Positions 2,909 through 63,630 of a stretch of DNA of 64,000 nucleotides are shown here, in pieces (the first letter of the stretch is position 1; each line of letters opens with the position of its first letter). Source of the DNA: Bdellovibrionales bacterium (GTDB lineage: Bacteria > Bdellovibrionota > Bdellovibrionia > Bdellovibrionales > JAUICD01); NCBI GenBank assembly GCA_965203275.1, contig OZ241865.1:1216001-1280000 (forward strand). Direction: 5' to 3'. Position numbers and translations under genes: made by a program. Below the pieces are notes generated by a model, which saw only the letters and a list, made by a program, of their open reading frames with translations, did no database searches and was not told the DNA's origin.

Positions 2909-3058
2909 CACTAAAAATAAACCAGCCTCTGGCTGTTTTTGGGCAATTAGCCCGACGGCTGTCGCCGTCGATAAAAGGCTGATTGCCTCAAAAATCCGTT
3001 TATTTTTAGTAGGAAGAATCCTCTCGTTTTTTAACTCCATGTTAAGGAAAATTTTCCT
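2909..3058 (-). repeat. Structured interspersed element, one complete copy
   Basis: ACTAAAAATAAAC...GTTTATTTTTAGT outer stem, CCTCTGG hairpin, long bulged hairpin, TGTTAAGGAAAA end. Confidence 0.9.
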
Positions 3059-3283
3059 TATAAAAAACTATGGAAATATAGGGCTTTTGACTTACTTAAG
3101 GATGTTCCTATCCGCTTTTTTTACTTAATTCTTAAAAACTGCTTGACTTCGGCCCTAAATAAATAAGATATAATTACAAACATTATCAAGGTTTACTTCT
3201 AAAACATAGAAAAAGCCCTTTTAATCAAGGCTTTAACCTTGTATGTACTTTATTGTTATTTAATTTAAAAGGAGGGCCAAACA

Positions 3284-3910
3284 ATGAGAAATTTATTTTT
3301 ATTTTTATCTTTATTTTTATCCATGGTTGCATGTCAAAAGGTTGAAGGAACACAGCTTTATTTTCATGAACCTCTAAATATCCATACGAATTTAATACAT
3401 GCTAGTAAAGATGGAGATATAGAGGATGTAAGGAAATACCTAGAAAATGGTGCTAACGTCAATTATCAAAGTATATATGGCTGGACGGCTTTAATTTGGG
3501 CCAGTTTTGAAGTCCATATAGAAATTGTAAGGTTCTTGCTAGAGGCCGGAGTTGACGTCGATATTCAAAGCAACAAAGGCTGGACGGCTTTAATGTGGGC
3601 TAGCTACTTTGGTAATATTGAGATTGTAAGGTTATTGCTAGAGGCCGGAGCGGATGTCAATATTCAAAGAAAAATTGGCAGACACGTTTTTAGCGATAGG
3701 GCTTTAAATAGCGGTAGGGCTTTAGTTGGCGGTACGGCTTTAGTTGATGCTAGTCGTGGATGCCATATTGAGATTGTAAGGGCATTGCTAGCGGCCGGAG
3801 CTAAAGTCAATATGCCAGACCAAAAAGGCAAGACGGCTTTATGGTCGGCTAATAAAGCAGGCTGTGTTGAGGTTGTAAGGTTATTGCTAGCGGCCGGAGC
3901 TACAGAATAA
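3284..3910 (+). CDS. Ankyrin-repeat lipoprotein
   Basis: AGGAGG RBS; lipobox MVAC; about 5 GxTALxxAxxxGxxEIVRxLLxAGAxVN repeats. Confidence 0.92.
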   Translation: MRNLFLFLSLFLSMVACQKVEGTQLYFHEPLNIHTNLIHASKDGDIEDVRKYLENGANVNYQSIYGWTALIWASFEVHIEIVRFLLEAGVDVDIQSNKGWTALMWASYFGNIEIVRLLLEAGADVNIQRKIGRHVFSDRALNSGRALVGGTALVDASRGCHIEIVRALLAAGAKVNMPDQKGKTALWSANKAGCVEVVRLLLAAGATE

Positions 3911-4039
3911 CTATCTGTTTAATAAGAATATACGGGCCGTAGCAAGCGGCCTTTATACTCCATCATGCTTAAACTTTAAAATTAATCGGCTTTTGAGGTT
4001 ACGCAGAATCTGAGAAAGAATAAAAAAACAAAAAAAGAA

Positions 4040-4215
4040 ACTCTTTTTCCTTAACATGTGGTCAAGAGACGAAGGGATCCTCCCCTACTAAAAGTAAACG
4101 GATTTTTGAGGTTGCCAGCATTTGAGAAGGCGATAGCCTTCGGCTGGCAACCAGAAAGTGACCAGAGGTCAGACCACTTTTAGTGAAAATGACGGCTAGT
4201 TTACTTTTAGTGAAA
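4040..4215 (+). repeat. Structured element copy plus an extra stacked 3' arm
   Basis: TTTTTCCTTAACA start; GTTGCCAGC..GAAGGC-GATA-GCCTTC..GCTGGCAAC hairpin; TGACC-AGA-GGTCA. Confidence 0.9.
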
Positions 4216-4363
4216 GAAATAATTTAATAATTACAATGCCTTCGTGGCATCTTAAATTATTCTTGAAAAGTAGCTGGTCTCTTGTTATATACATAGTTTA
4301 TAAATCAATGAAACAAAGAATTAAAAAGTTTTTACTACTTTACAAGTACAAGAGATTTTTACT

Positions 4364-5533
4364 ATGAGTGTCAGAGTTAAAATTAACCCAGAACTTTTAC
4401 AGTGGGCTTGTCAGCGAGCTGGCCTCAAAATTAAAGATCTAGGCCAAAAAGCATCTTTTAAAAAATTACCTGAATGGGAAAAAGGCACAACTCAACCCAC
4501 ATTTAAACAAATAGAAGCTTTTGCTAAAGCTACCTATGTACCCGTTGGATATTTGTTTCTTAAAAAACCACCTCTCAGAGAAGAAGTGCCTGTGCCTGAT
4601 TTACGTACTATAAAAAACAAATCAGTCATGCGTCCTAGCCCTCATTTGCTTAGTACAATCTATTTACATCAACAAAGGCAATATTGGTATCAGAAATTTT
4701 TAGCCTCTGCAGGTTATAAACCTTTAAAATTTATCGGCTCTGCCAGGATAAAAGATTCTATTGAAAAAACAGCCACGATGATGCGTCAAACTTTGAAATT
4801 TGATCTTAAAGCACGGGAAGACACTCCCACATGGGAAGAAGCTTTAACCTTATTTGTAAAACAAATGGATGATATTGGTATTTTAGTCATGATCAATGGT
4901 GTGGTAGGCAATGATTCTTCTCGTAAACTTGATGTGAAAGAATTTAGAGGATTTGCCTTAAGTGATCACCTAGCACCATTGGTATTTATTAATGGCCAAG
5001 ATTTCAAGTCTGCTCAAATGTTTACCTTAGCCCATGAAATGGCACATATTTGGCTTGGTAAAAGTTCTTTAAATAATACTACTTTAGATAGTCATCCAAA
5101 CCAAGAAATCGAAGTTTGGTGCAATAAAGTAGCTGCAGAATTTCTAGTTCCGCTAAAGGCTCTTAAAAAAGAAAATATTAAAAGTCATCCTCTCGAATCT
5201 GTACCTCAACTCAGTAAGAGGTATAAGACAAGCCATTTAGTCATAATACGTAGATTATTTGATGCTAAATATATCACAAGAGAAGCATTTGATAAAGCTT
5301 ATACTCAACGGCTCAGTCAATTGGGAAATCAAATGAAATTGAAAAATAAAAACCAAAAAGGTGGTGGTGATTTTTATCAAACAATGAACAAACGAGTAGG
5401 TCAACGTTTTATGCATAATTTAGTAACGTCTACACTAGAAGGAAATACTTTATTCACAGAAGCATTTGATTTACTTAATATCACAAGCACTTCTACTTTT
5501 ATGAAAATTGCAAAGAAACTAGGATTAGAATAA
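4364..5533 (+). CDS. XRE HTH + ImmA/IrrE-family Zn metallopeptidase
   Basis: N-terminal HTH (WEKGTTQPTFKQIEAFAK); FTLAHEMAH HExxH motif; EVWCNKVAAEFLVP. Confidence 0.9.
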   Translation: MSVRVKINPELLQWACQRAGLKIKDLGQKASFKKLPEWEKGTTQPTFKQIEAFAKATYVPVGYLFLKKPPLREEVPVPDLRTIKNKSVMRPSPHLLSTIYLHQQRQYWYQKFLASAGYKPLKFIGSARIKDSIEKTATMMRQTLKFDLKAREDTPTWEEALTLFVKQMDDIGILVMINGVVGNDSSRKLDVKEFRGFALSDHLAPLVFINGQDFKSAQMFTLAHEMAHIWLGKSSLNNTTLDSHPNQEIEVWCNKVAAEFLVPLKALKKENIKSHPLESVPQLSKRYKTSHLVIIRRLFDAKYITREAFDKAYTQRLSQLGNQMKLKNKNQKGGGDFYQTMNKRVGQRFMHNLVTSTLEGNTLFTEAFDLLNITSTSTFMKIAKKLGLE

Positions 5534-61996: not shown

Positions 61997-62093
61997 AAAA
62001 TCCTCTGTTCTTATTGTAAAATATAGTTTAATAGATTTCTTTAAGTACACAAATTTATTTTATGATATGATTTGCCTTCAATTATTGTTTAAA

Positions 62094-62720
62094 TTATTGT
62101 TTATAAGTCATTAAAGTATGTTGAAGTTTTTCAATTGATGGAGTATTTTCATCTTCGCCTAAAAGCCCATAAGGTAAGTTCATATAAATATATTTATTCT
62201 GCCAATCTATTTGAGTGATAAAATCTTGCACAAAAGGAATGTCATATATTTGTCCATTTTTTCTCACTTGTATCAAGTCCTGACTGCCGTTTGAAGAAAA
62301 ACTTACAATAGGACCTATTTGTTGACCGGAATGAACGACAATAAATCCTTTGACTTCAATAAGGTAAATCTCTTTACCTGGTTGACTGGTAAAATGAGAT
62401 AGGGGAACCATGACAAAAGCTCCTTGCCAATAGTTTGCTTCAGTACGATCGTTACAACCTTGAAGTTTTACAAGGTAGCCATTTTTATATTTTTTAAAAC
62501 TTTGAATATGAAAGGTAGACTTTAAAGGTCTATCTTTATAGCTGGCTTTATAGCTTGTGTTATAGCTTGTGTTATAGGTATTTTTAACCAGAGTGATTTG
62601 AGTAAGGTCATATATCCATTGAGCATTGGGGGTAAAAGGTAAAATAAATATTTGCCCTTGAACTCCAAAAGCTCCTTTAACCTTAGCAAGTCTGATATTT
62701 TCTTCTATTGTTTTCTCCAT
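62094..62720 (-). CDS. rimM: Ribosome maturation factor RimM
   Basis: AKVKGAFGVQG, GCNDRTEA, GSQDLI, IPFV; short 12-bp repeat insertion (YNTS/YKAS). Confidence 0.92.
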   Translation of the reverse strand: MEKTIEENIRLAKVKGAFGVQGQIFILPFTPNAQWIYDLTQITLVKNTYNTSYNTSYKASYKDRPLKSTFHIQSFKKYKNGYLVKLQGCNDRTEANYWQGAFVMVPLSHFTSQPGKEIYLIEVKGFIVVHSGQQIGPIVSFSSNGSQDLIQVRKNGQIYDIPFVQDFITQIDWQNKYIYMNLPYGLLGEDENTPSIEKLQHTLMTYKQ

Positions 62721-62845
62721 TCTGCCATTAAGAATGTTTTTGTTTTTTGTGTCAAGAGCTTTTTCACTTGAAATGAAGTATTGACAAAACAGAGAGCAAA
62801 TGTTTTTTATGATTGAAAAAAGAAATATTGAGGGTGTTATAAACA

Positions 62846-63523
62846 ATGAGCATGAGCGGTTTGAAAACTTTTATTTTGGGTCATACAAAAAATAAATTGC
62901 CTATTATGGCTTACCATTTTAGTCGTCAGCATGCCGTTAAAACCCCTAATAATCCTTGCATATTTATTTTAGGAGGGGTTCATGGGGATGAGGTTGAAGG
63001 TGTTATTGCAGCACAAGGCCTTATAGATATTTTGTTTGTAAAAAAAAATACACCTATTCTTTATGACATGACAATTGTACCTATTTTGAACTTTGATGGT
63101 TTTTTATGTCAAAAGCGTGTGAATGCATCAGGCGTTGATTTGAATAGGAATCTTCCTACCAAAGATTGGCAAGCCACAGCTCTTAAACCTAAATATCAAC
63201 CAGGGCCTGCTCCTAACAGTGAACCTGAAAATCAAGCTATGGTGGATTATATTTTAAAGTTGTGTCCTGAGTTTATTATATCCTTACACTCATGGAAGCC
63301 TCTTTTGAATGTCAATGGTGATGTGAAAGAAATTGCTAAGAAGATTGCTCAGCAAACAGGTTATGAGATTGTAGAGGATATTGGTTACCCTACACCTGGC
63401 AGTTTAGGCACTTATGGTCAGGAAAAAAATATTCCTGTATTGACTTATGAAATAGAGAGAGGACTTTCTACGCAAGAAATATTAAGAGTGCATGTTCCAG
63501 CCATATTTGGAGCTTTTCACTAA
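62846..63523 (+). CDS. mpaA: Murein peptide amidase A (M14 carboxypeptidase)
   Basis: GGVHGDE, NASGVDLNRN, SLHS, GYPTPGSLG, TYE. Confidence 0.85.
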   Translation: MSMSGLKTFILGHTKNKLPIMAYHFSRQHAVKTPNNPCIFILGGVHGDEVEGVIAAQGLIDILFVKKNTPILYDMTIVPILNFDGFLCQKRVNASGVDLNRNLPTKDWQATALKPKYQPGPAPNSEPENQAMVDYILKLCPEFIISLHSWKPLLNVNGDVKEIAKKIAQQTGYEIVEDIGYPTPGSLGTYGQEKNIPVLTYEIERGLSTQEILRVHVPAIFGAFH

Positions 63524-63529
63524 TGCTGT

Positions 63530-63630
63530 TTCACTAAAAGTGGTCTAGCCTCTGGTCACTTTGAGTGAAACAGAGGCTAGTTCAATTTTAGGGAAACAGA
63601 GGCCAGTTCATTTTGAGTGAAATGTTAAGA
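63530..63630. repeat. Fragments of the structured element (stacked 3' arms)
   Basis: AGAGGCTA-GTTCAATTTTAGG-GAAAC and AGAGGCCA-GTTCATTTTGAGT-GAAA units. Confidence 0.85.

Follow-up and report, generated by a model that had tools for sequence, protein, structure and literature searches.

Most abundant bacterial repeats have no assigned enzyme, and a 64,000-nucleotide (nt) stretch of a Bdellovibrionales bacterium (positions 1,216,001 to 1,280,000 of contig OZ241865.1, assembly GCA_965203275.1; hereafter the window) raises the question of what such a repeat is and how it multiplies. An earlier note, written from the letters alone, had described there an abundant non-coding family of about 150 bp and had suggested a mobile or recombination element recognised as folded single-stranded DNA (ssDNA). 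Here, we show that the element is a 148-nt non-coding unit with a body conserved by fold and a head conserved by sequence, and that it is mobile, multiplying and changing position. The genome holding the window (G000) is a single contig of 2.57 Mb with 35% G+C, 90% complete by markers, and was compared with a second carrier (G001), an element-free genome (G002), and a further genome without the element (G003); L-numbers denote individual loci or contig stretches from the compared genomes.

At its 5′ end, the unit has a head with the near-invariant motif TTTCC(T/C)TAACAT; the conserved leader reported earlier exists, and its first two to three bases vary. A highly variable stretch follows, purine-rich and then pyrimidine-rich, before a three-way-junction body made of a 13- to 14-bp outer stem, a long arm (bulged A, T-rich bulge, and apical stem), and an AGA-looped short hairpin; the unit closes with a terminal GAAA(C). 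Four outer-stem pairs that the earlier note had quoted were all found where it placed them, and the DNA fold of one copy reached −34.7 kcal/mol (z = −7.4), with none of 200 shuffles as good. The body covaries: 40 distinct copies, drawn from three assemblies, showed 96–98% pairing in each of its four helices (outer stem, arm, apical stem, and short hairpin), and 31 of the 41 pairs in these helices had changed on both sides; the covariation score of 0.373 dropped to 0.064–0.088 when partners were slid by 1–3 columns, in controls that ignore relatedness. Two hairpins can be drawn in the head (83% and 60% paired), neither with covariation and the first without any two-sided change, and the head motif is likely to be a protein-recognition site.

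Since relatedness alone does not explain linkage between partner strands, a strand-linkage table of 562 genome copies is firmer than these column-shift controls. The two strands of the apical stem were linked at a normalised mutual information (NMI) of 0.95, and each to the loop between them at 0.50, while the outer-stem strands, 88 nt apart, were linked at 0.77 versus 0.63 to the directly adjacent segment, the short hairpin. Outer-stem alleles were matching and common in 454 of these copies and a mix of two alleles in 60, suggesting that helices are shuffled by recombination among copies. Rare outer-stem variants were one-sided in 45 copies and two-sided in only 3, so that pairing appears to be kept by selection, and automatic copy-correction of the stems was rejected on this count. 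Of 382 distinct bodies, 317 had C-GNNA-G apical loops, as first noticed in the window, and in 112 of these (about a third) the loop was GNYA (GGTA, GATA, or GACA). Separately, some variants carry an extra hairpin at the junction or in the short hairpin (L056:4600-4794, L056:4843-5003, L004, G000:C1:78900-78990, and 8 more), and one such insert holds what we take to be a DnaA-box-like 9-mer.

How widespread is the family? Full copies in G000 number 630 by stem parsing and 705 by k-mer mapping, and 2,425 fragments, spread on both strands, cover 173,211 bp or 6.7% of the genome; G001 has 219 heads. The covariance model matched 3 of 151 genomes of the order and, in a phylum draw of 151 genomes, G000 only. 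The third match (G004) was rejected as a carrier: its matches lie on three small contigs (C1, C4, and C11; L056, L024, and L025), which we read as mis-binned from a G001-like organism on the strength of tests on two of them, one encoding a RecG 94% identical to that of G001 (a second G004 RecG stands at 55%) and another being 87–90% identical to G001 DNA. Hence, within the genomes searched, no carrier lies outside a single genus. Pattern scans gave 0 matches in viral sequences, 0 and 1 in two metagenome scans, and at least 40 loci in a genome collection, 39 among the matches listed coming from one Bdellovibrionales metagenome-assembled genome (MAG) record; two outlier matches outside that record failed the covariance model. 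At gathering score, Rfam matched only a tRNA in the window, and a search of 40300-43400 at E ≤ 5 returned noise and no family for the repeat. Nor did a description of the family turn up in the literature searched, a set without ISfinder and most subscription journals.

Both filled and empty sites exist, positions are not conserved between sister genomes, and with no Rfam match the suggestion of a structure-conserved mobile element outside the listed families holds. Only 6 of 42 gene sides with a copy in sister-lineage loci also have one in G000, against a background of 12–15%; at one of the six, upstream of a protease gene, the tail flank is shared too and looks inherited. The family predates the lineage split and turns over. 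A 20-kb stretch compared with four public contig sets yielded no clean empty-site joint, its joints lying among repeat copies, and GC skew is flat across the whole of G000, consistent with frequent inversion between copies. In the sister lineage, three copies stand between rpsQ and rplN in a ribosomal protein operon (L010 / L025:11970-12655), the same spacer being empty in G000. These data also bear on the idea of a host-useful non-coding RNA (ncRNA) or DNA site (terminator, stabiliser, or nucleoid anchor) spread and homogenised by recombination. The strong selection on the fold, the insertion at the protease gene that both lineages appear to share, and the avoidance of open reading frames (ORFs) (2 of 614 clusters inside ORFs of at least 100 codons, after ORFs mostly made of element were excluded) would suit such a function; however, orientation is near random, positions are not conserved, copies break each other and genes, and a four-copy cluster held no promoter-like site, and we consider this explanation very unlikely.

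With more than 600 intact copies and more than 100 distinct nested joints in one genome, the insertion chemistry can be read from sequence. At least 157 nested triples (old 5′ part, new copy, and old 3′ part) occur in G000, with hot spots in the short hairpin and the head, and a linker of 7–30 nt separates the old part from the new head. Among 125 distinct nested 5′ joints, 67 have a linker that recurs in full ahead of a head somewhere else in the genome. Donor and target overlap by at least 2 nt at 48% of these donor-bearing joints versus 21% in the null, and no dinucleotide dominates at the 125 joints or at the ends of shared flank runs. In a comparison of 270 site families, the best upstream run that different families shared had a median of 14 nt versus 8 in column shuffles. 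From 95 automatic filled/empty rows, 12 were hand-picked with the target outside the element (the four-helix-bundle gene described below and its leader, two other repeat families, and promoter regions), and the rest, which look like comparisons among pieces of the element or of repeats, were set aside; these 12 had lost 0–29 nt of target, and none had duplicated it. They include the lone full copy at 2905..3052 of the window (− strand; covariance model and a paralogous empty site), which brought 7 extra nt at its 5′ side and 11 at its 3′ side (about 4 of them the element's own end) and replaced 9 nt of target without duplication. At G000:1827547, both carried flanks match the site family found at G000:125524 and 756665. 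This joint anatomy is new: a carried upstream flank, microhomology, target replacement, no duplication, and no fixed dinucleotide together fit none of the families tested.

Upstream flanks hold two further signals. The proximal flank matches the reverse of the head over at least 5 nt in 37% of families versus 13% when shuffled (26% versus 19% in the sister set), which could reflect a small hairpin between flank and head, or a preference for certain targets. Further, 142 pairs of heads are separated by a heptamer array, in some cases together with an entire four-helix-bundle gene, and long passengers therefore appear to travel upstream of the element; head duplication around these inserts was rejected, the same allele occurring in 8 of 142 pairs versus 4.3% by chance. 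Two other kinds of joint were seen in G000: IS256-like elements inside repeat copies with their own 8–9-bp duplications (G000:C1:627742 and 433487), unlike the repeat's own joints, and double-tailed and inverted chimeras crossing over inside stems (e.g., G000 C1:158157, 508283, and 948222).

Does the fold act as DNA or as RNA? Of 4,966 outer-stem pairs, 4,755 were Watson-Crick, 63 G-T, and 45 A-C. Orientation is near random relative to the upstream gene (176 same versus 143 opposite) and the downstream gene (164 versus 155). Among 265 private changes, C>T (59) and G>A (55) were strand-symmetric, and A>N and T>N both ran at 2.2 per 1000, with no adenine bias. Because G-T pairs are few, about a third of the loops are GNYA, gene orientation is near random, and mutations are symmetric, we favour the folded top DNA strand as the active form; recognition as folded ssDNA, proposed in the earlier note, is hence favoured by pair types, loops, and orientation, while these data do not amount to proof.

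The alternative is an RNA route, in which a processed transcript of about 170 nt with ragged ends would be reverse transcribed in trans and integrated through short homology, SINE-like or like a diversity-generating retroelement (DGR), perhaps helped by the four-helix-bundle proteins, which we take to be kin of DGR Avd. Retro-insertions likewise show a variable 5′ extent, microhomology, and loss of target, 333 of 562 copies have GNRA apical loops, and G001 encodes reverse transcriptases (RTs), with three matches that include a group II intron RT and a retron RT. The gene association could also be read this way: 25 of the 28 four-helix-bundle matches (TIGR02436) that reach the C-terminus have a same-strand head 54–108 nt downstream, and in G001 an element copy lies no more than 450 nt away from at least 12 of the 19 genes of this kind, versus 4.5% at random. 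However, G000, the genome with most copies, has no RT (RVT_1), mutations are neither adenine- nor strand-biased, G-T pairs are few, and 5′-truncated copies in unique DNA are few as well, most 5′-less pieces following a tail or being inverted chimeras. In addition, four-helix-bundle cassettes are multicopy in element-free genomes, and their orientation to copies in G001 is mixed. Overall, the RNA route seems unlikely to us.

If ssDNA is the form that moves, which enzyme moves it? In G000, searches found no Y1 transposase (PF01797), no RT, no match to the HUH motif, no integron integrase above cut-off, and no match to kin Y1, RT, and IS110 proteins by tblastn and phmmer; in both G000 and G001, RAYT (NF047646, controls matched) and IS110 transposase (PF01548 and PF02371) were absent. 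A search for Y2 (PF04986) gave 0 of 5, with no control matched in that search, and PF07282 matched only in frames of about 1,350 amino acids (aa). A filter for basic soluble proteins returned 316 ORFs, and reading those listed by eye gave no candidate, the whole proteome not having been scanned against Pfam. Thus, the models the earlier note had named (REP, IS200/605 ends, and attC) fail in their particulars, as RAYT, Y1, and integron integrase are missing and joints are ragged rather than precise. Several other genes were tried and set aside, namely a GIY-YIG match (found once in each genome, in a frame whose size of 600 aa points to UvrC), one DUF559 match with no element adjoining in the sequence inspected, and serine recombinase, IS256-like, and IS1634-like genes (labels based on sequence), in whose inspected flanks the element's ends were not seen.

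The repeat could still be REPIN/BIME-like and depend on a HUH (Y1) nuclease that is lost, sits on a missing replicon, or has diverged too far to be detected, with variable cleavage and trimming leaving ragged flanks. TnpA-REP binds folded, bulged ssDNA, cuts 5′ or 3′ at a variable distance, and host trimming has been proposed as a source of varied ends, according to two reports (PMC3333891, PMC8266576). The G..A-closed loops, bulges, mosaics, and tandem arrays fit this, and an absent enzyme is not unusual here, since a second orphan element of G000 and G001 (see below) likewise has no detectable one. Yet Y1 and RAYT are absent from G000, the only RAYT-like genes of the taxonomic family lie in the element-free G002, and the single Y1 gene of G001 is an IS200 with no element copy within 1.5 kb; no constant junction dinucleotide or conserved GTAG tag is present, and circle insertion would not predict target loss. 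We regard a hidden HUH nuclease as possible and rather doubtful.

We consider it extremely unlikely that the folded ssDNA is a site on which a tyrosine recombinase acts, in the manner of attC or of the forked attP found in Xer-using phages. Conserved bulged bases on long stems and the presence of two such recombinases in G000 would be in keeping with it. However, both enzymes score far below the integron-integrase cut-off (55 and 54 versus 265 bits), and the ragged joints largely refute the idea. The small enzyme (187 aa, catalytic domain only; G000:C1:2047789-2048352, L002) was rejected as a partner because 51 of 61 genomes of the order have it, and the element is absent from nearly all of these. 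Integron attC sites are used by integron integrase, have RYYYAAC/GTTRRRY cores, and form cassette arrays; in the repeat, GTT/AAC is absent from several common stem alleles, and no arrays of gene cassettes are flanked by its copies.

Two gene families keep close company with the element. In G000, 36 of 37 loci for Rpn-family nucleases touch a cluster, versus 101 of 453 single-copy genes. The claim that no obvious cognate enzyme lies in the window accordingly stands for RAYT, Y1, and RT, absent genome-wide, and falls short in that two Rpn genes there (PF04754, a Pfam "putative transposase") abut clusters. The second family consists of 101-aa four-helix-bundle genes with 32 heptamer-flanked matches in G000 (window 20056-20220; L066-L073 and L079-L097), and all four matches lacking the C-terminus are cut by an element copy. 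Against the Protein Data Bank (PDB) at E ≤ 0.01, the four-helix-bundle protein matched only XCC0516, not Avd. Eight of the 151 order genomes have at least 10 matches; these frequently form divergent pairs that flank a long hairpin, and no adjoining transposase was seen. A co-occurrence with the element that had seemed perfect within the taxonomic family was rejected, as the G004 contigs are foreign and element-free genomes have multicopy cassettes. In the parts seen of a paper on the heptamers (PMC4679880), helix-bundle genes are not mentioned. Both Rpn and four-helix-bundle cassettes are strongly associated with the element, neither is sufficient, and both may be landing pads or passengers.

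Together, these observations lead us to a mechanism that we regard as plausible, although at somewhat less than an even chance: a non-autonomous replicative element that moves as folded ssDNA and is patched in by flank annealing or template switching. A protein would recognise the folded top strand plus the head, and the element would be released or copied as ssDNA with ragged ends. The fold would bring both ends close, so that the flanks could anneal to an exposed target strand at a fork gap or nick, where host polymerase would patch the element in by annealing or template switching. Each new copy brings donor upstream flank (7–30 nt, and sometimes, it appears, a heptamer array or the whole 101-codon gene) and a few downstream bases, and these carried flanks replace a short, often partly similar, target stretch. 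Old copies and other repeats would be favoured as targets because they resemble the carried flanks, and recombination among copies would shuffle helices, with only paired ones continuing to multiply. The best named candidate for the enzyme is the expanded Rpn family, a putative role to which we give a small probability; otherwise, it would be a host protein that has escaped recognition, or would come from a replicon that the assembly lacks. RpnA cuts single- and double-stranded DNA without sequence specificity, and the 3′ ends that it leaves allow primer-template switching (PMC5350276).

Several observations weigh against this annealing mechanism or the role of Rpn in it. The data are sequences, with no intermediate or enzyme activity observed, and folding energy is about equal for both strands and does not separate DNA from RNA. 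Of the 125 linkers, 58 have no full donor in the genome, and flank sharing is weak on the 3′ side in G000 (median 8 versus 7) and in the partial sister-genome set (again 8 versus 7), though linkers of 13–15 nt shared between sites are nonetheless visible in the latter. Apparent duplication in 36 of the 95 automatic rows looks like comparison between element or repeat pieces, and these rows were dropped unverified. As for Rpn, pilin loci (24 of 29) and ankyrin-type genes (61 of 107) are also enriched for clusters in G000, only at least 4 of 19 Rpn loci in G001 lie near a copy (144 of about 219 copies used), G003 has 16 Rpn matches and no element, and RpnA showed no preference for cruciform DNA in the same report.

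The repeat may even represent a new class of bacterial mobile DNA, an idea we hold tentatively and with low confidence. Such an element would need no transposase of a known family; the captured flanks of its folded strand would act as short guides annealing to the next target, and each insertion would rewrite the targeting sequence of its descendants and carry neighbouring genes, the starter being an Rpn-type nuclease or the machinery of the heptamer/four-helix-bundle cassettes. Were a host nuclease-polymerase route or Rpn the answer, the Rpn "putative transposases" would gain a cargo, and the element would offer a compact scaffold for ssDNA insertion. In either case, the genome has been reshaped, with 6.7% of its DNA given over to the element, Rpn and four-helix-bundle genes broken, and passengers carried.

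Within the window, the earlier note had counted about 13 clusters and 6.8 kb; the family is indeed abundant and clustered, and k-mer mapping gives 15 clusters, 6,205 bp in all, between 2905 and 63623, while the covariance model gives 42 matches, 19 of them full copies above 110 bits. A representative full copy of 147 nt (43202..43348, + strand, 145.7 bits) comprises the head motif (43204..43215), conserved in sequence without covariation, the 5′ strand of the outer stem (43245..43257), the long arm with bulged A, T-rich bulge, apical stem, and G..A loop (43261..43317), the short hairpin with AGA loop, which is the commonest site of nested insertion (43318..43330), and the 3′ strand of the outer stem with terminal GAAA(C) (43331..43348), all on the + strand. 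Clusters on the + strand hold a full copy with a leftover tail (4044..4216), two truncated pieces and a full copy (5732..6033), four nested full copies with heptamer repeats and an internal duplication (16017..16981), two full copies with stacked 26-nt tails (19476..20054), a full copy with 3′ remnants (20224..20533), and nested copies with heptamer-carrying linkers (42342..43348). Between the fourth and fifth of these lies the 3′ third of a four-helix-bundle gene (20056..20157, +; TIGR02436/PF05635), which breaks off at an element tail and gives way to heptamer repeats and then a new head. On the − strand are clusters at 29076..29414, 29958..30765 (two full copies plus stacked heads, each with a carried linker), 30829..31222 (directly downstream of an Rpn gene), and 52227..52583 (a full copy plus stacked heads). 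That Rpn gene (31237..32331, −; PF04754 and TIGR01784 above cut-off) has element pieces on both sides, including a decayed head upstream (32400..32425, −), and is associated with the element, its role in mobility being putative. A two-strand cluster at 40257..40872 has full − copies inside a + head. Tail and head remnants (41612..41696, +) separate duplicated coiled-coil genes; these are tandem paralogous small membrane/coiled-coil genes (41042-41569 and 41866-42306), and in front of each lies an element head joined to unrelated DNA. Stacked tails (63528..63623, unstranded) mark the 3′ end of a second Rpn gene, which lies on the − strand from 63650 and runs off the window. Part of the window is also held by some public runs with a sponge metagenome label (4 rows from one study, shares 0.18–0.30).

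Other repeats share this genome. The second orphan element is AT-rich, about 151 nt long, with precise ends and a shared CA core (G000:C1:467072-468460, L156, and 13 further sites, e.g., G000:C1:105010-105170); at 14 sites in G000, its insertion point is the same position within the main element (model 113-114), and once it forms nine head-to-tail units, the joint of which looks like a circle junction. Its G001 relatives (L161, L166, L168, and L170) are 76–80% identical, with at least five copies in other targets, and it behaves like IS110, yet no IS110 transposase occurs in G000 or G001. A long-hairpin repeat of about 200 nt (G000:C1:454660-454860, L157; −86 kcal/mol as RNA) has some 30–45 copies, is often broken by the main element, has ends in the window at about 4000 and at 40790-40830, and has a related form in L004 and L010. 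A 229-nt repeat (G000:C1:73900-74500, L158) occurs in about 27 copies, some of them in tandem, and includes 15 nt that mimic the element's tail and serve as an insertion site. Lastly, an AT-rich non-coding repeat of about 450 nt (window about 29430-29940, −; G000:C1:3345, 8103, and 122137; 14–30 copies by 18-mer count) immediately precedes a pilin-like gene at one or more of its sites.

How, then, does the element compare with known systems? DGRs show adenine-specific mutagenesis. DGR homing shares with the element an Avd-like family nearby and target replacement through short homology; unlike DGRs, G000 has no RT, adenine mutagenesis is not seen, and the PDB match is not Avd. IS91/ISCR elements use a Y2 transposase and a fixed GTTC/CTTG target. 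With these and Helitrons, the element shares a tighter tail end and a second, leaky end that takes along upstream passengers (here, heptamer arrays and a small gene), whereas it has no fixed tetranucleotide target and its tail joint varies by a few bases; GAAC and CTTG do occur in inherited G000 linkers, not as a rule in the sister set. IS200/IS605 palindrome-associated elements (PATEs) combine Y1 TnpA (and TnpB), subterminal hairpins, and precise insertion 3′ of a fixed 4- to 5-mer, and IS110/IS1111 combine a DEDD transposase with precise insertion at a 2-nt core, in contrast to an element with no Y1, no DEDD transposase in G000 or G001, and ragged joints. The two ends of our element appear to form a loose inverted pair of 11–12 nt, head versus reverse of tail. 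Miniature inverted-repeat transposable elements (MITEs; Correia, RUP, ERIC, and Nezha) are alike in size, non-autonomy, and intergenic abundance (PMC3184786), and unlike in that the element has imprecise ends and no target duplication, and no resident insertion sequence shows its ends in the flanks inspected. Also similar is bcr1 of the Bacillus cereus group, which in the same source is about 155 bp long, has a compensated branched fold, non-conserved positions, and no enzyme assigned in the passages seen, and is flanked by 5-bp direct repeats, whereas none occur at the 12 clean sites here (bcr1 was compared by description only). There are also many likenesses to REP/BIME/REPIN sequences (PMC3333891, PMC8266576, PMC3337134, PMC3116915, PMC3733652): hundreds of intergenic structured copies, mosaics, arrays, bulged stems, vertical persistence with site turnover, and targeting by a second mobile element. 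A REP, however, is a hairpin of 20–40 nt, or an inverted doublet, with a conserved GTAG (or CGTC) tag at the base of its short palindrome, whereas our element is a 148-nt three-way junction with a sequence-specific head; its only GTAG-like site (bottom strand, model 42-45) varies, with C at 42 in 68% and A at 44 in 91%, and the hairpin there is 60% paired. Unlike REPs with RAYT, it has no RAYT and no CT/CA junction rule, carries donor flanks, and loses target. By tag, enzyme, and junction dinucleotide it is not a REP, and it nevertheless works like a REPIN.

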